From: an uncultured Erysipelotrichaceae bacterium | Lineage (GTDB): Bacteria; Bacillota_I; Bacilli_A; RFN20; CAG-826 | DNA: 51,506 nt | Direction of reading: 5' to 3' | NCBI GenBank assembly: GCA_900317295.1 | Contig: ONGB01000004.1 | Span: 15,303-66,808 of the forward strand | Shown: piece after piece, positions 2,713 to 27,393 of the stretch | Position numbering within the stretch: the stretch's first letter is position 1 | Layout of the letters: each line of letters starts with the position of its first letter | Made by a program: the position numbers and the translations under genes | Notes under the pieces: generated by a model | The model's input: the letters and a program-made list of their open reading frames with translations, nothing else | Databases searched by the model: none | Told to the model about the DNA's origin: nothing

Positions 2713-3758
2713 TTCAGGTCCCTTTTCACGTATTTGGCGCGCAGTTGCCCGCAGGCGGCGTCGATGTCGCTGCCGAATTCCTTGCGGACGGTGGTGTTGA
2801 TCCCCCGCTTCATCAGGCGGTCGGCAAAGGCGCGGACCGCGGAGGAGGGAGAGCGCTTATAGGGCTTTTCCTTCACTTCGTTATAGGGGATGAGGTTGAC
2901 GTAGGCGTAGATGCCGTAATGGTGGATGAGGTCGGCGAGTTCATCCGCTTGGGAAAGGCTATCGTTTTTCCCGGCGAGCATGATGTATTCGAAGGTGACC
3001 CTCCTGCCGGCGGATTCTTCGTATTCCTTGATCGCGGGCATCAAGACATCCAGGGGATAAGCCCGGGCGATCGGCATGATCTCCTTGCGGATTTCGTCAT
3101 TCGGCGCGTGGAGGGAGACGGCCAGATTAATCTGGATCCCCTCCTTCCCGTATTGCTTGATGCGCTCGGGGAGGCCGCAGGTGGAGACGGTGATGTGCCT
3201 CGCCCCGATGGCGAGGCCGTTTTGATCGTTCGCGGATTTGATGAAATCGAGGACGTTATCGTAATTGTCGAAGGGTTCCCCGGTGCCCATCACGACGATG
3301 TGGGTGACGCGCTCCCCGCGTTCGGCGAGGACTTGGTTCATCACCATGACCTGCCCCATCATCTCCGCGTGGGTCAAAACGCGTTCACGCTTGATGAGGC
3401 CGGAGGCACAGAAGGCGCAGCCCATCGAGCAGCCGACTTCGGAGGAGACGCAGACGGCGTTGCCGTAGTTATAAGGCATCAAGACGGTCTCGACCTTCGC
3501 CCCGTCTTCCATTTCGAGGAGGAGTTTGATCGTGCCGTCTTGGGCGTCTTGCCGACGGAAAATCTTCGGGAGGGTGAGGCGGTAATCCCGCTTCAAGACC
3601 TCGCGAAAGGCCTTCGACACGTCGGTCATTTGGTCGAAGTCCAATACCCCTTTCTGATAAACCCAGGCATAGAGTTGCTTCCCGCGGAATTTGCTTTCGC
3701 CTAAAGCGAGGAATTCCTCAGTCAGCTTGGGCAGGGGGAGTCCGAGAAGATCCTTCAT
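2709..3758 (-). CDS. rlmN: 23S rRNA m2A2503 / tRNA methyltransferase RlmN (radical SAM)
   Basis: CVSSEVGCSMGCAFCASG, MGTGEP, SLHA, FEYIML, IDAACGQL. Confidence 0.96.
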   Translation of the reverse strand: MKDLLGLPLPKLTEEFLALGESKFRGKQLYAWVYQKGVLDFDQMTDVSKAFREVLKRDYRLTLPKIFRRQDAQDGTIKLLLEMEDGAKVETVLMPYNYGNAVCVSSEVGCSMGCAFCASGLIKRERVLTHAEMMGQVMVMNQVLAERGERVTHIVVMGTGEPFDNYDNVLDFIKSANDQNGLAIGARHITVSTCGLPERIKQYGKEGIQINLAVSLHAPNDEIRKEIMPIARAYPLDVLMPAIKEYEESAGRRVTFEYIMLAGKNDSLSQADELADLIHHYGIYAYVNLIPYNEVKEKPYKRSPSSAVRAFADRLMKRGINTTVRKEFGSDIDAACGQLRAKYVKRDLK

Positions 3759-3772
3759 GGTCCCCCTCCTCC

Positions 3773-5098
3773 TTACTCCGCGGCGGCGCTGCTAATGGGC
3801 GCCGAGGCGGGGGCTTCCGCCACTAACGGGGCGTTCGGGGCGATCGTGAGTTCCTTCTCCTTCTTCTCGAAGACGGCGAGGAAAGCGGCGTTGCCCGGTT
3901 CCTCGAAGGGGAAGTGCTGCTTTTCTTCAAGGAGTTTGAATTCGGGATGGGTCTGCAGGAATTTGGCGATGGTCATGTGGCCTTCTTTCTTGGAGATCGT
4001 GAAGACCAGATAAAGGAGCTTCCCGCCTTCTTCCACGAAGGGGGCGGCGTTCTCTAGCGAGGCGGCCTCGCCTTCGATGATCTTATCCATCTCGTCCTTA
4101 TCGAACTGCAGGAAGAAGTCCGGGGCGGAGGGGATGTCGTCGAAGGAGGTGGAGCGCGGGGCGACGAGGACGAGCTCGGCGGGGCGCGAGACGGCGGAGG
4201 TCAAGGTCTCCCCATTTGGGGCGGCGAAGAGATTGACGTTATGGAGGCCCTTCTTCTGGATGGCGCGGAGCACCGGGGCCTTCTTGGAGAGGTCGGGGAC
4301 GGCGATGTTCATGCCGATGGATTCGCCATATTTCTCGATGAGCTCGAGCTCGAGGAAGCAGGTATCGCTGCCGTTATAAAGGAGGATCTCCTTCGGAGGA
4401 TTGACGGCATATTCGTCGAGCACCTTCTTCGCGAAGGGTTTGATTTCAAAGAGCTTCTCGGCGCGGACGAGCTCGTTGCGGCGGAGGCTCGTCTTGCCAT
4501 GGTAATCGACCAAATCGGCGAAATCGCTCCGCGGGGAGAATTCCGGATTGGCGGTCACTTCGTCGAGGGAGACGCCGCCTTTGACGCGGAGAACGCTAGA
4601 GGCGGGGCGAGAGAATTTCTTCAGGGTGCGGTAGGTGTTGCCGAAACCGAAATGCTGGAAGATCTTCAGCACCCATTCCGGGGCGTTATAACGGAGGGAG
4701 AGATAGAGGTTGGAGCTGCGGGAGATCGATTCGGGGATATAGGAATCGGGGTTCCCGACTTTCTCGTATAACGGGGAAAGCAAAGCGAATTTCTCCTCGC
4801 CTAGCTTTTCCTTGATCGCTTCGTCCATGACGTCGCGTTCGTAGTGGCGGAAGAAATAATCGTTAGCGAGCCCAAGGGAAGCGATGCGCTTCTCCTCTTC
4901 GGTGAGGTCGATTTCCTTTAGGAGATAGGTGAAAAGGAGGTGATGGCGGAGTTCGCATCCGAGCAAACCGGAGACATTGGCCCGCATCGGGCGGAGCTCC
5001 GGGGTGCTTTGGAAGGTCAGGCGAAGGGCCTCGGAGAACGGCAGATGGTCATCGAGGACCTGATTGAGGATCTTGATGGAGAGATCGAGTTCTTGCAT
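3773..5098 (-). CDS. rsmB: RsmB/Sun-like protein (NusB-like plus MTase fold) with degenerate catalytic motifs
   Basis: Occupies the syntenic rsmB position and has a similar length. LSLRYNAPEWVL and GGKLLY...EG...FL..HPEFKL are recognisable, but DAPCSG is VAPRSTS and YSTCT is YLVFT. Confidence 0.75.
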   Translation of the reverse strand: MQELDLSIKILNQVLDDHLPFSEALRLTFQSTPELRPMRANVSGLLGCELRHHLLFTYLLKEIDLTEEEKRIASLGLANDYFFRHYERDVMDEAIKEKLGEEKFALLSPLYEKVGNPDSYIPESISRSSNLYLSLRYNAPEWVLKIFQHFGFGNTYRTLKKFSRPASSVLRVKGGVSLDEVTANPEFSPRSDFADLVDYHGKTSLRRNELVRAEKLFEIKPFAKKVLDEYAVNPPKEILLYNGSDTCFLELELIEKYGESIGMNIAVPDLSKKAPVLRAIQKKGLHNVNLFAAPNGETLTSAVSRPAELVLVAPRSTSFDDIPSAPDFFLQFDKDEMDKIIEGEAASLENAAPFVEEGGKLLYLVFTISKKEGHMTIAKFLQTHPEFKLLEEKQHFPFEEPGNAAFLAVFEKKEKELTIAPNAPLVAEAPASAPISSAAAE

Positions 5099-23694: not shown

Positions 23695-24095
23695 CCGACC
23701 ACCACGCTTTCTGAGGAGATTCCCGTTAAGACGATCGACACCCCGTTATAGGCGCAGATGATCGGCTGGGCGGTGGAGGAGACATAGGCTTGATGGACGC
23801 AATATTGCGAGGGGCAGCCCGACTCTTTGACCCTGATCGCGTTTTTCTTCACGGTCAAAACCATCGGGGTCTTCTCCCCTTCGATCGGGATATCGCGTTC
23901 GGCGGTCTCTTGGGATAAATCCAAAACCAAAAGGGTTTCGTTCCCGCGGTAGACGCTGGCCATCAAGGCGGAAACCTTCCTGGGGGCATTGATGAAAATC
24001 AAAGAAAGGATGACGCCGAGGAGTATGACCGACGATAGGATGATCTCGGGTAGATGCTGGCGGATTCCCCTACTCTTCGAAGCCTGGGCCGACAT
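23691..24095 (-). CDS. NusG domain II-containing membrane-anchored protein
   Basis: N-terminal TM segment; IRVKESGCPSQYCVHQ...PIICAYN. Confidence 0.88.
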   Translation of the reverse strand: MSAQASKSRGIRQHLPEIILSSVILLGVILSLIFINAPRKVSALMASVYRGNETLLVLDLSQETAERDIPIEGEKTPMVLTVKKNAIRVKESGCPSQYCVHQAYVSSTAQPIICAYNGVSIVLTGISSESVVVG

Positions 24096-25038
24096 AGGTC
24101 GCCTCCCCGTTTTGGACCAATACCATCCCGAATCCCTTTTCCGTCACGACGGCGCGGATATCTTCTTCTTCCATCGACATGAGCGCGGTCGAATAGACGT
24201 CTAACTCCGTCGGATTATCCCCGGCGAGGATGATCATGTCATAACGCGCCTCGGCGTTTCCAGTGAGGGGATTGACGATATGAGAATAGGTGTTGTTATC
24301 GATGATGGCGCTTTGCTCATGGATCGCCGAAGCCGAAAGGGCGGAGAACGAGGTGCGGAAGCTTTCCCCTTCTAGATGCTCGGGGAAGATTTGGTAATGC
24401 TTGGAGGAGGCGGTGAGGCCGAGAAGAAGGGCGCTATTACCGCCATTGATGAGGTAATGGGTCAGCTTTTCTTCCTTAAGGTATTCTTGGATGATGGACT
24501 GGCAATACCCTTTGCCGAAAGCCCCTAAATCGAGTTTGCCTTCCCCTACCCGAGTGATGGTCAAATTCGCCTCATCGAATACAAGGGAGGTCATAAGCGC
24601 CTCATCGCGGAGGCGGAGGACTTCGCTTTCCTCGGGGAGGGTTTTGCTTTCGATCGCTGCTTTCCATAGGGCGGATAGTTCCCCTAAGAAGGGGGAGAAA
24701 TAGCCGCTTGTCTCTTCTTGATAGGCCACGGCGAGGCGCAGCGCTTCAAAGAGGGTATCCCTGACCTTCACGGGCTCATGGGTGGCGTTAATCTGGGAGA
24801 TGTCGTTATTGGGATGGCCCCCATCGACATCCAGGAGGGCATGGACATCCGCGATGATCTTTTCGATGGCGTAGAGATCGGATTTATGGCCTTCGTTTAG
24901 GCGAAGCGTCCATACCGTATGGAAGGCATAGGGGGAGCTTTCGTATAAGGGAAGGGAAGAGGCGCAAGAAAATAGCAGGCCTGAGAAGGCGAGGATTCCC
25001 CAAATGCGGGGCGATGAATGCTCTTTATTTCTACGCAT
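24070..25038 (-). CDS. apbE: FAD:protein FMN transferase (ApbE/FmnB), lipoprotein
   Basis: Lipobox LLFSC, TSGYF.P..G.L..LW, DLGAFGKGY, INGG, YSHIVNPLTG, DVYSTAL; next to rnf. Confidence 0.9.
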   Translation of the reverse strand: MRRNKEHSSPRIWGILAFSGLLFSCASSLPLYESSPYAFHTVWTLRLNEGHKSDLYAIEKIIADVHALLDVDGGHPNNDISQINATHEPVKVRDTLFEALRLAVAYQEETSGYFSPFLGELSALWKAAIESKTLPEESEVLRLRDEALMTSLVFDEANLTITRVGEGKLDLGAFGKGYCQSIIQEYLKEEKLTHYLINGGNSALLLGLTASSKHYQIFPEHLEGESFRTSFSALSASAIHEQSAIIDNNTYSHIVNPLTGNAEARYDMIILAGDNPTELDVYSTALMSMEEEDIRAVVTEKGFGMVLVQNGEATYVGPGFEE

Positions 25039-25093: not shown

Positions 25094-25140
25094 AGAATGT
25101 TGTCAATTTTGGAATCAGACTCCGTTTTTGCCAACATTCT
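25094..25140. promoter_or_regulatory. 13-bp inverted repeat upstream of apbE containing TTGACA on the minus strand
   Basis: AGAATGTTGTCAA ... TTGCCAACATTCT (12/13 match). Confidence 0.5.
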
Positions 25141-25935
25141 TTATTGCAATAGGGTATCATTTTCTTTTTGCAATCTCTTCTTTTCCCGGTAGTAACGATC
25201 GATGGAAATATGCAGAAGCTCTGCGGCTTCTTTCGGTCGCATTTTGCCCTGTTCGACCTCATGGACGCATTCGCGGAATTTGAGTTCGTTCAGCGGTTTC
25301 TTTTTCCTTCCTTTATACGCGTGCCGGGCTTTTGCTTGTTCGATGCCTTCTTGCTGCTTTTCTTTCGCGGCGAAGCGCGAACGGGAATATAGGCTTAGGA
25401 GCGCGTGGAAAACGATGTCCCTGGAGCTATCGTCGATCACCATGCCGTCCATCAAAAGGTCATCGCCCAAGGATAAATGCTCGAGTATGGCGCGGGTGAG
25501 TGCGCTGTTATTCTGGTAAGGATTGGCTTCTTCGATGGCATATAGGATCTTTTCGTGCTTTTCCATCACGAATAGAGGATCACCGAAATACTGCTCATCC
25601 GTCTTGATCAGGTAAAGGATCGGATCCATGAAGGACATCCCCACGGCGCGTAGCATTTCCTCATAGCCCTCCCGGCGCTTGGATGGCACGCGTTCGGAGA
25701 TGAAAACCGGTTCCTTGTTCTCCCTGACGTATTCCTTTTTCTTCAAATCCAAGTTTAAGCCCGGGATTCCTTGAAATAGGGAGGAATCCAAAAGGGATAT
25801 CACGGAATAATTCGGGCGGAAGACATAACGGAAGGACCCGTCTTCCCATAACGTATAAGAAAGATCGCAAACCGCATAGGTCAGCTGATATTCATCCCTG
25901 ATGGCGATGGTGCCTTCGGAAACATAGCTCTTCAT
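25141..25935 (-). CDS. HipA_N/HipS-like domain fused to a resolvase-type arm and HTH (putative antitoxin/autoregulator)
   Basis: PVFISERVPSKRRE...ML..VGM...DPILYLIKT; C-terminal KQQEGIEQAKARHAYKGRKK...EAAELLHISIDRYYR; ATGA overlap with the kinase. Confidence 0.7.
   Translation of the reverse strand: MKSYVSEGTIAIRDEYQLTYAVCDLSYTLWEDGSFRYVFRPNYSVISLLDSSLFQGIPGLNLDLKKKEYVRENKEPVFISERVPSKRREGYEEMLRAVGMSFMDPILYLIKTDEQYFGDPLFVMEKHEKILYAIEEANPYQNNSALTRAILEHLSLGDDLLMDGMVIDDSSRDIVFHALLSLYSRSRFAAKEKQQEGIEQAKARHAYKGRKKKPLNELKFRECVHEVEQGKMRPKEAAELLHISIDRYYREKKRLQKENDTLLQ
25143..25174. repeat. 32-bp direct repeat, copy 1 (inside the last codons of the partner gene)
   Basis: ATTGCAATAGGGTATCATTTTCTTTTTGCAAT. 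Confidence 0.85.
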
Positions 25936-26798
25936 TTCTTTGCCTCCTGCAATTTCAGATAGGAAACGCGAAGAATCTTTTCATAACGATGGGCGATCAT
26001 CGTTTTATAAAACGCCCTGTGTGTCTCGCTCAGGATGTCGATATCGTCGATCAAGGCATCGACGCGGGAAAGGTCGATGCGCGGGAAGACTTTCGCTAGA
26101 GCCTTGCTCACTTCTTCGAATCGGAGGGAGGAAATGACTTCGTAATAAGAGCTTTTCTTGCCGTATAGTTGGATCTGCGAGGTGGGGAAGCCGTAGACGC
26201 GGAGATTGATTTCCTCTTCGTCTTGGAGGATGCGCCGCATCTCTTCTTCGTCGGTTAACGAAGGGAAAAGACAGGATCCATTATCGAAAACCGGGGCCAT
26301 GCGATAATGGCCATCCTTTTTAAGGAATCCCCAGTTCGCCCCGTGACGATCGAAATTCCCGAGCAACGCGTCGACGATGTAGATCTCAAAGAAGGAGGAG
26401 ACCGTCTCCTCGACGTTCGTCAATTTCTTATTGGAAAGCAATAACGCCATGATGTCCTCGTAGGAGTATTGGTACTGCTCTTTGTCGGTCTCGATCGTCG
26501 ATTCCCCGACATCGTTGAAAGGAACGAATTGGGAACCATCGACGACGAAATCCTTGCAGGCCACCACTTCTTGTCCGTCATAGGTCCCAAGGAAAGTATC
26601 TTGGCAATCGAAGCCGAGCATTTGATAGATATGGCTTCCCAGGTATTCCGAAATCGTATTGAAACGCACGCCGAAAGGTGTGTTCTTTTGGAACTTCAGC
26701 ATGAAGGGATCGCCATGGATCAGCACGCCGATTTTCCGTTCGGATCCGCCATAGTGCCGATGGCTCAGGGGGAATTGATTGAAATCAAAATACTGCAT
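25932..26798 (-). CDS. HipA-like (HipA_C/CtkA-type) kinase
   Basis: YGGSERK, MLKF, ISEYLGSHI, GNFDRHGANWG, APVFDNGSCL. Confidence 0.88.
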   Translation of the reverse strand: MQYFDFNQFPLSHRHYGGSERKIGVLIHGDPFMLKFQKNTPFGVRFNTISEYLGSHIYQMLGFDCQDTFLGTYDGQEVVACKDFVVDGSQFVPFNDVGESTIETDKEQYQYSYEDIMALLLSNKKLTNVEETVSSFFEIYIVDALLGNFDRHGANWGFLKKDGHYRMAPVFDNGSCLFPSLTDEEEMRRILQDEEEINLRVYGFPTSQIQLYGKKSSYYEVISSLRFEEVSKALAKVFPRIDLSRVDALIDDIDILSETHRAFYKTMIAHRYEKILRVSYLKLQEAKK

Positions 26799-26836
26799 GA
26801 AGCTTCTCCGGCTTCATTGTATTGAAAACCCCATCA

Positions 26837-26868
26837 ATTGCAATAGGGTATCATTTGAATTTTGCAAT
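26837..26868. repeat. 32-bp direct repeat, copy 2, overlapping the predicted -35 of the kinase operon
   Basis: ATTGCAATAGGGTATCATTTGAATTTTGCAAT (29/32 identical to copy 1); minus strand TTGCAA-N16-TACAAT. Confidence 0.85.
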
Positions 26869-26884: not shown

Positions 26885-27190
26885 TTATTTCTCTTCGCCA
26901 GGATGTTCAGAGAGATAGGCGAGGATCGGGTCGAAGTTCTTGTCTTTCTTGCCCGGTTTGCATTTGGCGACGTTCTTTTCTTCGCCTTTGACGAGCTTCT
27001 CGGCCATCTCGTGGCAGCCGGCATAGCCGCAGGAGCCGCAGTTATAGTTGGGGAGCAATTTCTCCACTTCCTTGATGCGCGGGTCTTCTTTGACTTCGAA
27101 CACCTTTGAGGCGATGGCCAAAGCTAGGCCCAAAACCAAGCCCAATCCGGCGAGGATCCCTAAAGCGATCAATAAGGTCCAAGGATTCAT
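26885..27190 (-). CDS. rnfB: RnfB, short form (TM plus FeS domain only)
   Basis: LAIASKVFEVKEDPR...LPNYNCGSCGYAGC...A....CKPG; ends at 101 aa. Confidence 0.85.
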   Translation of the reverse strand: MNPWTLLIALGILAGLGLVLGLALAIASKVFEVKEDPRIKEVEKLLPNYNCGSCGYAGCHEMAEKLVKGEEKNVAKCKPGKKDKNFDPILAYLSEHPGEEK

Positions 27191-27393
27191 TGTTGCTCTC
27201 CTTCCTTATGATAACGCGCGTATAAAGGACAACCCTTCTCCCCACATGGCCCGCATTTGCTCATGTCGGGGTGGAGTTCCTCGCAGCCTTCCGGCGCCTT
27301 CATGCGGCGGAATAATAAATAGCCCCCGATCGAGACGACGAGCAAAGTCGCGATGATGGCGATGGCGATGATCAGATACATTTCCTTCGTCAT
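27187..27393 (-). CDS. Small single-TM Cys-rich protein inside the rnf operon
   Basis: TM segment then APEGC...CGPCGEKGCP; ATGA overlap with rnfB. Confidence 0.75.
   Translation of the reverse strand: MTKEMYLIIAIAIIATLLVVSIGGYLLFRRMKAPEGCEELHPDMSKCGPCGEKGCPLYARYHKEGEQQ

Follow-up and report, generated by a model that had tools for sequence, protein, structure and literature searches.

The 32-nt repeat that stands at both ends of a two-gene module in the window (the whole stretch of 51,506 nucleotides analysed here) is most likely, on comparative grounds, the binding site of a dimer of the protein encoded by the second gene, the partner. With a probability of about 0.7, we read the module as a toxin–antitoxin (TA)-type system of the hipMP kind, in which the upstream copy of the repeat (O1) serves autorepression and the second copy (O2) is an auxiliary operator for the same protein. 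This operator reading of the repeat is supported, and its reading as the att sites of a cassette is not supported.

Both genes lie on the minus strand. The first (26798..25932) encodes a short HipA-family Ser/Thr kinase of 288 aa, CtkA/HipM-like by its Pfam HipA_C and PDB CtkA matches, and overlaps the partner gene (25935..25141) by 4 nt (ATGA). Upstream on the same strand is the gene for an RnfB-like FeS protein (26885..27190; Pfam FeS, PF04060, 4.7e-12), the last of an rnf cluster whose Rnf-Nqr and RnfD families, also identified with Pfam, lie further upstream; downstream, again on the minus strand, is the gene for an ApbE flavin transferase (24070..25038; PF02424, 9.7e-36). The predicted operator copy O1 (26837..26868, minus strand) is 32 nt long and lies 70 to 38 nt 5' of the kinase ATG. 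The predicted second copy O2 (25143..25174, minus strand) has the direct orientation, overlaps the last 10 codons of the partner gene and touches its stop codon. The copies are identical at 29 of 32 bases, the 3 mismatches being contiguous, and both end in the inverted 7-nt sequences ATTGCAA/TTGCAAT. The repeat pattern (up to 3 mismatches) matches the window at these 2 places and matched none of 100 dinucleotide shuffles; the 20-nt core, at the same tolerance, occurs twice in the whole 1,598,940-base genome. On this genome a position weight matrix (PWM) of homologous sites gives O1 40.0 bits and O2 40.8, and the next best site 15.3.

A consensus scan places the predicted promoter of the module at 26816..26843 on the minus strand, with its -35 hexamer TTGCAA (26843-26838) formed by the right half of O1, a 16-nt spacer and the -10 hexamer TACAAT (26821-26816); the scan reports 2 sites in the region, and shuffled sequences give a mean of 2.5. 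Among 54 related upstream sites, 48 have a -10-like hexamer 16-18 nt after the right half-site, against 9% of random windows. The first-pass annotation had quoted the repeat with its inverted ends, set one copy over the predicted -35 and the other in the partner's last codons, and described the pair as bracketing a two-gene module between rnfB and apbE. Each of these points holds, the third as a peculiarity of this locus. O2 does encode the final residues LQKENDTLLQ* of the partner, but in most relatives the site begins TTG CAA AAA TAA (LQK*) at the partner stop; in the window a GAA stands in place of the TAA, so that translation continues across the site. Judged against the relatives' sequences, the coding of the last codons by O2 is a local accident.

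The HipA-like character proposed for the kinase is borne out by Pfam (HipA_C, 4.3e-15, residues 17-178). The closest solved kinase is Helicobacter pylori CtkA (JHP0940, PDB 3akj; E 1.5e-50, 175 bits), to which residues 14-283 of the 288 align, nearly the full length, and with which the catalytic motifs are shared; HipT is reached by sequence only at an E of about 0.1-0.2. There is no HipA N-subdomain, and the Gly-rich loop YGGSERK occupies residues 16-22. The catalytic-loop residues D150, R151, H152 and N155, together with D172, N173 and G174, are invariant in 26 kinase sequences. Identity to the nearest relatives is about 70% for the kinase (many MAGs) and about 50% for the partner. By these identities the kinase is better conserved than the partner, unlike the usual fast-evolving toxin.

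The partner, of 264 aa, joins a HipS-like N-terminal part to a C-terminal serine-recombinase remnant, as the first-pass annotation had described it. Residues 1-117 (25585..25935, minus strand) gave an AF2 model with a pLDDT of 91.6, and when this was compared by VIA-align with 48,161 chains the top four were all HipS or the N-terminus of HipA: HipS 7vkb_B (Z 8.7, rmsd 2.6, 92 aligned), HipS 7ab3_B (Z 8.3), and the HipA N-termini 5k98_A (Z 7.7) and 4pu3_A (Z 6.8), the next chain scoring 4.5. The HipS likeness is thus one of fold, and it is a VIA-align result only; Foldseek with the N-domain model alone returned no HipS-related match.

For residues 118-264 (25141..25584, minus strand) a profile search of the PDB and Foldseek agree. 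The profile aligned partner residues 118-253 to residues 56-197 of the Sin resolvase (2r0q_C, E 1.9e-5), and Foldseek with the whole partner gave chains of the Sin, gamma-delta and Tn3 resolvases as its top five rows (probability 0.97-0.99, E 2.6e-3 and weaker). The model of this part consists of a small beta/alpha piece, a long helix (172-203), an arm (YKGRKKK) and a three-helix HTH (217-263), in keeping with the serine-resolvase arm and HTH attributed to it earlier. The absence of a recognisable catalytic recombinase domain, also remarked on earlier, was found again: no Pfam Resolvase match appeared at E<=1, nothing of Sin before residue 56 is aligned, and its DRLGR stretch is unmatched. Because the catalytic serine domain is absent, recombination by the partner alone is not expected. 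Alignment A1 shows no variation at I243, S244 and R250, and residues 244-250 (SIDRYYR; 25186..25206, minus strand) are the presumed recognition helix, from their covariation with the half-sites described below.

A complex of the kinase with partner residues 1-117 was predicted with a score of 0.34, against 0.00 for the best of 3 controls, the runs agreeing in at least 79% of contacts and giving a partner pLDDT of at least 81. In the calibration of the method, 58 of 80 solved complexes and 2 of 110 mismatched pairs reached the mark; those of them scoring 0.60 or under comprise 7 of the 80 solved complexes and both mismatches. Since structures of HipS with HipT already exist, passing may reflect no more than likeness. 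The prediction hints, weakly, that residues 1-117 may neutralise the kinase. The genomic association of the two genes is strict on one side: among 251 genomes of the order, the partner lies directly downstream of 24 of 24 intact kinases (at least 45% identity). On the other side, five genomes have an intact partner and no kinase match, one has a kinase gene with 3 stops beside an intact partner, and orphan partners were also classified by tblastn in 8 of 80 related loci. We infer that the kinase would be toxic and that the adjacent partner would neutralise it.

Several HipA-kinase module types have been predicted from genomes, and hipMP is one of them. It is described as a short kinase (279-321 aa) followed by a gamma-delta-resolvase-like putative antitoxin (Gerdes et al., 2021, mBio, PMC8262856), and Gerdes, Baerentsen & Brodersen postulated that this antitoxin, HipP, binds DNA and is autoregulatory (PMC8262856). 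The parts of that account drawn on here agree with our module in a kinase of this size (288 aa) that is without HipA N-subdomain-1 and has its Gly-rich loop near the N-terminus, and in a resolvase-like gene directly downstream, which here overlaps the kinase stop by 4 nt. They differ in that HipP is described there as resolvase-like only, those parts of the paper making no mention of a HipS-like N-domain, an operator sequence or a second site (PMC8262856). By architecture, the module fits the predicted hipMP organisation described there. A literature search found no experimental work on hipMP.

HipBST of E. coli O127 and Legionella pneumophila likewise has a kinase that is without the HipA N-subdomain, a HipS fold on a polypeptide apart from the kinase, corresponding to the absent N-subdomain, as the likely neutraliser, and an HTH function for autoregulation. 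It differs in that our module combines the HipS fold with the DNA-binding part in a single protein and has the kinase gene first, and in that the DNA-binding part is recombinase-derived rather than a HipB/Xre HTH. With the Sin, gamma-delta and Tn3 resolvases the partner shares the long E-type helix, the basic arm (YKGR) and the C-terminal HTH; unlike them it is without the catalytic serine domain, and its sites flank or precede the kinase operon instead of forming a three-subsite res. A res subsite is about 30 nt long, a resolvase dimer touches its inverted ends with its two HTH domains, and Tn3-type resolvases also repress transcription from res.

The recognition of the repeat by the partner was approached through 80 related loci and, for the second copy, through 60 intact modules. 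A homologous site lies 58 to 90 nt 5' of the kinase start in most of these loci. A PWM built from 39 upstream sites and scanned on two strands gave 88 matches of at least 12 bits in the 176 kb that lie no more than 400 nt from the modules, and 3 in the remaining 426 kb of the loci. The half-sites fall into classes that follow the presumed recognition helix, with the reservation that the loci are related and the counts overstate the number of independent events: TTGCAA half-sites go with a SID[KR][YF]YR helix in 27 of 29 loci, TTGAC[AGT] with SxST (SxSTF) in 21 of 21, and TTGATAG with SEATF in 3 of 3 spirochaete loci, while two loci have TTGCGAA half-sites and an SKDKYYR helix. Three loci keep the Bacilli-type inner sequence, yet both ends are TTGACAC and the helix is SKST. 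The two ends of the site change together and stay inverted in each case (ATTGCAA/TTGCAAT, GTGTCAA/TTGACAC, GCGTCAA/TTGACGC and CTATCAA/TTGATAG). Half-site and HTH helix may constitute a readable code, in which SIDKYYR is paired with TTGCAA, SxSTF with TTGAC and SEATF with TTGATAG. The inner part of the operator is conserved but asymmetric, AAATAAAA on the left and ATACCCTA on the right, which a simple picture of a symmetric dimer does not explain.

The first-pass annotation had offered, as one of two readings, an antitoxin acting through res-like sites. The binding part of that proposal gains from these comparisons, in so far as alignments can tell: the site accompanies the module, covariation links its half-sites to the helix, and O1 holds the -35. 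The annotation had also asked whether homologous modules keep paired repeats covarying with the HTH; the covariation is there, and the paired copy is unclear in more than half of the intact modules.

A second copy was called clear when at least 24 of 32 bases were identical to the locus's own O1, shuffled O1 sequences reaching at most 22. Second sites were sought by a self-match scan and the two-strand PWM, as local alignment in the direct orientation only misses inverted and adjacent copies. On this basis 26 of the 60 intact modules have a clear second copy and 34 do not, so O2 is dispensable for the family. Where present, it lies at the partner stop in 24 loci, as a direct copy in 18 and an inverted one in 6 (at Lachnospiraceae-type loci), and adjoins O1 in 2. 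Over the variable inner bases, O1 and O2 of the same locus are 0.86 identical; non-cognate pairing within one half-site class gives 0.69, and in the TTGCAA class none of 5000 permutations reached the value observed. Gene conversion, rather than selection, could account for this concerted change. In many gut bacteria the partner site is found once on the promoter and once at the far end of the module.

Three other roles for O2 were considered and dropped. Of the 26 direct copies 7 are followed by a -10-like hexamer, and of the 7 inverted ones none is, which does not suit a duplicated promoter or, for the inverted copies, an antisense promoter directed into the partner gene. Nor does a substitute terminator suit the counts of terminator-like hairpins, found in 3 of 26 loci that have O2 and in 4 of 33 that lack it.

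In the mechanism that we propose, the partner gene is translationally coupled to the kinase gene through the ATGA overlap, and the HipS-like N-terminus of the partner would hold the kinase inactive. The C-terminus is what remains of a serine recombinase after loss of the catalytic domain, namely its DNA-binding two thirds, and a partner dimer would seat one HTH domain on each of the inverted 7-nt ends, much as resolvases do on a res subsite. Since O1 contains the -35 of the module, binding there is proposed to shut off the operon. O2 would be an auxiliary operator at the end of the partner gene; two dimers could bind O1 and O2 cooperatively through the recombinase-type long helix, looping the 1.7-kb operon and tightening repression. 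Such cooperative binding, with DNA looping between O1 and O2, is, we infer, the most likely role of O2. There are precedents for the parts of such a scheme. HipB of hipBA binds multiple operators, and in lac (O1-O2) and gal (OE-OI) a distant auxiliary site aids repression by looping. The module resembles hipBA, lac and gal in having more than one putative palindromic operator, one of them on the promoter. It differs from lac and gal in that the auxiliary site is 1.7 kb away at the stop of the last gene, and the predicted loop would enclose the entire operon.

O2 might instead bind the partner and act only locally, as a roadblock or insulator or in control of the next gene, here apbE. The setting gives this some appeal, in that an operon-like rnf-apbE cluster is interrupted by a module of the same orientation, a putative apbE promoter (TTGGCA-N17-CAAAAT, 25134-25106) starts 9 nt beyond O2, and some direct copies have the -10-like hexamer noted above (7 of 26). 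However, the promoter scan found 2 sites in a region where shuffles give a mean of 2.5, 19 of the 26 direct and all 7 inverted copies have no -10, only about half of the direct-type loci have their nearest downstream gene on the same strand, and the terminator-like hairpins are equally rare with and without O2. We regard a purely local role as unlikely.

A further alternative is a module that is not a TA system at all, in which the kinase would have a signalling or host-directed function like CtkA and the partner would be a transcription factor modulated by it. CtkA, the closest studied kinase, is described as pro-inflammatory and secreted, and the source, as far as it was drawn on, has it encoded on the tfs3 conjugative element and acting on host cells, not as a TA toxin (PMC5536186); the conservation of our kinase, at about 70% identity across many MAGs, is unusual for a toxin. 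Such a role is nevertheless quite improbable, as the partner has a HipS-like domain, and HipS is, according to the portions of the HipBST reports used here, the toxin-neutralising element of HipBST (PMC10627512, PMC9325769). The intact kinase is always accompanied by the partner (24/24), and partners occur alone or beside decayed kinases; the distribution is patchy, the contexts are varied, and Fic or AbiEii genes are found among the neighbours.

We give only a slim chance to a functionless O2, that is, a by-product of copying (for example a fragment exceeding unit length, derived from a tandem array or a circle, or a duplicated promoter region) kept similar to O1 by gene conversion. More than half of the intact modules manage without it, the similarity extends about 20 nt past the site in three loci, and the inner bases change in concert with those of O1. 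But in three distant clades the second copy has both half-sites in agreement with the HTH class of its own locus, and two orphan-partner loci keep it. It also has a constant place, the partner stop codon, in two orientations, where a neutral leftover should decay or shift.

The wider genomic context bears on the remaining alternative. Judged from the flanking genes, the module is an insertion in the rnf-apbE cluster of a small-genome ruminant-gut Bacilli bacterium: in six same-genus genomes rnfB is joined directly to apbE. The first-pass annotation's second reading, a minimal cassette moved in trans through attL/attR-like sites, would lead one to expect a single repeat in such empty alleles. 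None of the six holds a copy or half-copy of it, ApbE starting right at the rnfB stop. The module is patchily distributed and has a different context in nearly every genome, some of its neighbours being Fic or AbiEii genes. No recombinase or transposase family is among the 25 most frequent Pfam families (each with 2 to 4 members) of the 133 nearest neighbours, and no homologue of the partner was found in plasmid and phage collections at E<=1e-5. In contigs from four public runs of four studies the module is in place between rnfB and apbE, a single contig in one run covering it across all 2801 bases, and no contig joining rnfB to apbE was seen, though contigs drop rare variants. One contig of another of these runs has a joint from 25185 to 26838, with 28 letters on its shorter side and a likeness threshold of 90, to which a warning of the tool applies, and a loose contig end at 26868 continues into unlike AT-rich sequence; this joint probably derives from a module of another organism with the same site.

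That O1 and O2 are attL/attR-like sites, from which a serine recombinase acting in trans excises the 1.7-kb cassette as a circle or integrates it, is therefore very improbable: direct repeats bracketing the whole module in the window, a partner of serine-recombinase descent, a site similar in size and symmetry to a res subsite, a module inserted relative to six same-genus genomes in a family of varying contexts, and copies that evolve in concert would all suit it, but the empty alleles are siteless, an inverted second copy (Lachnospiraceae-type) would give inversion and not excision, the second copy adjoins O1 in two loci and is not clear in 34 of the 60 intact modules, both copies are complete sites with no hybrids, and neither a recombinase or transposase among the 25 most frequent neighbour families nor a partner homologue in the plasmid and phage collections was found.

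Returning to the auxiliary-operator reading, we tentatively consider, as a rather unlikely extension of it, a dead resolvase that still synapses. Dimers at O1 and O2 would join by way of the recombinase helix in a resolvase-like tetramer, which would close the operon into a topological loop of 1.7 kb, and the family would include CtkA. A recombination synapse would then have been reused as a transcriptional lock, which engagement of the kinase by the HipS-like domain could open or tighten. If this were true, the CtkA 'effector' would be recast as the toxin of a mobile-element TA module. The family is linked to CtkA by kinase similarity.

For hipMP, the analysis yields a predicted operator with a proposed recognition code, a domain map of the partner (HipS fold plus recombinase remnant) and an unusual two-site operon layout. 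For annotation, the repeat would be entered as a regulatory site, not as the end of a mobile element, and the two-site layout raises the question of DNA bridging by a recombinase that is catalytically dead.

The best-supported reading of the two-gene module, from sequence and structural modelling, is that the partner protein would both neutralise the HipA-family kinase and repress the operon. Read on the minus strand, the upstream repeat copy O1 (26837-26868) lies 70 to 38 nt 5' of the ATG of the 288-aa kinase gene (26798..25932, minus strand), which overlaps through ATGA the gene for the 264-aa partner (25935..25141, minus strand), and the second copy O2 (25143-25174) covers the last ten partner codons. 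The first-pass annotation had placed the two 32-nt copies correctly; sequence comparison finds three mismatches, all adjacent. The repeat pattern was matched in 0/100 dinucleotide shuffles of the window, its 20-nt core has just two occurrences in the whole genome (1.6 Mb, 91 contigs), and a weight matrix from homologous sites gives the two copies 40.0 and 40.8 bits, the next genome site scoring 15.3 bits.

The module is flanked by the last genes of the rnf cluster on one side and by apbE on the other. Genes for RnfD, two Rnf-Nqr subunits and an RnfB-like FeS protein lie upstream, all co-stranded with the module. The RnfB-like gene (26885-27393 region) encodes only 101 aa, with an FeS domain; 5' of it stands a 68-aa Cys-rich ORF (27187-27393) that hits no Pfam family. 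Since same-genus relatives have both, a short or split RnfB may be a feature of the genus. The O2-apbE interval holds a 13-nt inverted repeat (25094-25140; AGAATGTTGTCAA / TTGCCAACATTCT, 92% complementary, arms 21 nt apart), overlapped by a promoter-like TTGGCA-N17-CAAAAT (25134-25106, minus strand), in a spacer of ~100 nt that is absent from empty rnfB-apbE alleles.

Binding of the 32-nt site by the partner is favoured by the way in which the two vary together. The database holds 389 partner relatives at E<=0.001. Scanning species-representative genomes yielded 80 loci; with L067 dropped because its partner runs off the contig, the set numbers 80 including the window, from Bacilli/‘Mollicutes’ gut MAGs, from Lachnospiraceae and from spirochaetes. 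Sixty have an intact kinase and both flanks visible, nine a truncated or decayed kinase, eight no kinase, and three are cut by a contig end. Nearly all carry a 32-nt site 58-90 nt 5' of the kinase start. Its consensus for the Bacilli group is xTTGCAAAAATAAAATGATACCCTATTGCAAx, for the Lachnospiraceae group GTGTCAAAAATAAAA…CTATTGACAC and for spirochaetes CTATCAAAATA…GTCTATTGATAG. A matrix from 39 upstream sites finds, at >=12 bits, 88 matches no more than 400 nt from modules (176 kb) versus 3 in the other 426 kb. The sequence of the site ends differs between groups, and the inverted-repeat relation of both ends is always kept. TTGCAA half-sites go with the HTH helix SID[KR][YF]YR (27/29 loci), TTGAC[AGT] with SxST[FYL]xR (21/21), TTGATAG with SEATF (all three loci) and TTGCGAA with SKDKYYR (both loci), counts that are not independent, since the loci are related. 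In three loci (L048, L050, L052) TTGACAC ends occur together with SKST around an inner sequence that is still of Bacilli type. The covariation of sites and HTH for which the annotation had proposed looking is thus present, protein and DNA changing together in at least four specificity classes. Other direct repeats, unrelated to the 32-nt site, flank two Lachnospiraceae/Treponema-type modules: an 86-nt GC-rich one in L082 (about 2936-3022 and about 4845-4931) and a 37-nt one with a terminator-like hairpin in L062 (about 2115-2152 and about 3930-3967).

O1 contains the predicted -35 of the operon. The promoter scan of the window gives TTGCAA-N16-TACAAT (26843-26816), and in 48/54 upstream sites a -10-like hexamer, in many a perfect TATAAT, stands 16-18 nt (mostly 17) past the TTGNNN of the right half-site; such a hexamer appears in 9% of random windows from the same loci. 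A protein bound at O1 would therefore block RNA polymerase.

The annotation's view of the partner proved right: a HipS fold is joined to what is left of a recombinase after loss of the catalytic domain. The protein matches no Pfam family, giving only a sub-threshold HTH_23, but when 21 homologues are combined into a profile it matches Sin resolvase (2r0q_C, E 1.9e-5), partner residues 118-253 pairing with Sin 56-197. The matched stretch takes in the end of the catalytic domain, the long helix, the YKGR arm and the HTH, and leaves out the N-terminus with the catalytic serine as well as the arginines of DRLGR. The best Foldseek rows for the AlphaFold model (pLDDT 88.7) are Sin, gamma-delta and Tn3 resolvases, with probabilities of 0.97-0.99 yet E-values of 2.6e-3 and weaker. 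Residues 1-117, modelled alone (pLDDT 91.6), had no Foldseek match; in VIA-align, over 48,161 chains, Legionella HipS (Z 8.7) and E. coli HipS (Z 8.3) rank first, followed by the N-termini of two HipA structures (7.7 and 6.8), with the next chain at 4.5. Complex prediction for the kinase with these residues scored 0.34 (best of three controls 0.00), a level at which, by the tool's calibration, most passes are wrong when the pairing was not already likely. This hints at an interaction, and because HipS-HipT complexes have already been solved the pass may reflect likeness only.

The kinase matches Pfam HipA_C (4.3e-15) and, among solved structures, Helicobacter pylori CtkA (3akj) over residues 14-283, nearly its full length (E 1.5e-50), whereas HipT chains reach only about 0.1-0.2. 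The enzyme looks active from its sequence, since the Gly-rich loop (G18, E20, K22), the catalytic loop (D150-R151-H152-x-x-N155) and D172-N173-G174 are invariant among 26 aligned family members. The database holds 3014 relatives at E<=0.001. One related locus (L032:6922-7581) encodes, 2 kb 3' of its module, another HipA-like kinase of distant sequence (33% identity over residues 1-197). About 30 more short HipA-like kinases in the order, at 28-42% identity, presumably represent other Hip families with other partners; a partner of the present type was detected only for G221:C10.

The annotation had also proposed testing whether homologous modules keep the paired repeat, and some do. The search with each locus's own O1 covered both strands, from 330 nt 5' of the kinase to 120 nt beyond the stop codon of the partner; a second copy with at least 24/32 identities (shuffled O1 maximum 22) was present in 26/60 intact modules, the rest being without a clear copy, and about seven more were borderline. 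The copy is direct at the partner stop codon in 18 (the window, other Bacilli-type loci and three spirochaete loci), inverted there in six (Lachnospiraceae type) and inverted just upstream of O1 in two; this search of the 60 modules found none inside genes. Most commonly the site starts TTG CAA AAA TAA, its left half-site encoding LQK-stop, and where the copy is inverted the TAG of …GTCAATAG serves as stop codon. At O2 of the window TAA has become GAA, so that the partner frame runs through the site to a TAA just past it, adding ENDTLLQ. O2 does, as had been claimed, cover codons, but this is incidental to the site lying flush with the gene end. Metagenome contigs from ruminant-gut runs X6, X8 and X11 carry A>G at 25156 in O2 (giving GTGTC, the form that the site of a relative in the genus has), and in X6 the partner stop is TAG, not TAA (25141 T>C). 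In most loci O2 does not duplicate the promoter, since a -10-like hexamer follows it in 7/26 direct and 0/7 inverted cases, nor does it stand in for a terminator (terminator-like hairpins in 3/26 modules with O2 versus 4/33 without).

On the best-supported reading, the HipS domain would neutralise the kinase, and a partner dimer on O1, over the -35, would repress the operon. O2 would be an auxiliary operator, cooperating with O1 through dimer-dimer contacts probably inherited from the recombinase; such cooperation would be possible with the sites in either orientation and at both spacings, in keeping with the three arrangements observed. That O2 acts as a local roadblock, or controls a neighbour gene, is rather unlikely.

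The two genes also show the asymmetry expected of toxin and antitoxin, an indirect indication from gene content. Across 251 genomes of the order, the partner lies directly 3' of every intact kinase of at least 45% identity (24/24, the window included, one cut by a contig end), while five genomes (G053, G235, G163, G174, G085) have an intact partner and no kinase match, and in G152 a kinase with three stops adjoins an intact partner. The related loci show the same asymmetry. Intact partners without a kinase occur in L007, L016, L018, L021, L022, L027, L031 and L041, both sites in L021 and L027 now lying directly around the partner gene, and kinase remnants adjoin intact partners in L025, L036, L038, L046, L052 and L078, as in G152. 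The kinase is thus never found alone and the partner tolerates its loss; a signalling pair of non-toxin-antitoxin character is an improbable reading.

Variable inner bases are shared by O1 and O2 more often in cognate pairs (0.86) than in same-class non-cognate pairs (0.69), and 0/5000 permutations reached the observed value in the TTGCAA class. This fits either a common protein constraint or gene conversion; that O2 is a functionless leftover seems quite improbable.

Empty rnfB-apbE alleles with a single repeat, as predicted for a cassette between attL/attR-like sites, were not borne out. Some match to the region's DNA was found in 19 of 24 same-genus genomes, and in the six rnfB loci examined (G007, G006, G017, G005, G002, G021) apbE starts at the rnfB stop or no more than a few bases from it, with no kinase, partner or TTGCAA-N17-20-TTGCAA. 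Other genomes of the genus have modules elsewhere (in G004 on contig 5, with rnfB on contig 1). The 276 flanking ORFs of related loci form 210 clusters, and no neighbour is conserved; the 133 nearest neighbours match 165 Pfam families, the commonest (HTH_3) hit by four members, and the 25 most frequent include housekeeping functions and a few Fic and AbiEii genes and no recombinase or transposase. From these comparisons the module is therefore a self-contained, horizontally moving two-gene unit that carried both sites along into a target that had none. The site-less target and the inverted and adjacent second copies argue against att sites, which are very improbable. Contigs from four public ruminant-gut runs have the module in place and no reliable excision joint, though contigs may miss rare forms.

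Gerdes, Baerentsen and Brodersen (mBio 2021, PMC8262856) defined ten Hip kinase organisations, among them hipMP, in which the gene for a short kinase, HipM, is followed by that for a putative antitoxin, HipP, described as ‘similar to gamma-delta resolvases’ and proposed to bind DNA and autoregulate. The module here shares that layout and adds a member to the predicted family. Full-text searches of the literature library found no experimental follow-up of hipMP, that paper being the sole relevant match; its available portion does not mention a HipS-like domain in HipP, an operator or CtkA. In the part of PMC5536186 available, the ctkA position in H. pylori tfs3 elements is taken in other strains by a Fic-family gene, which fits a CtkA-type kinase as addiction- or defence-type cargo. 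With all functions predicted from sequence and models, the hipMP-type module gains an operator with a recognition code, a second site flanking the operon, a HipS fold in the partner and a close tie to CtkA.
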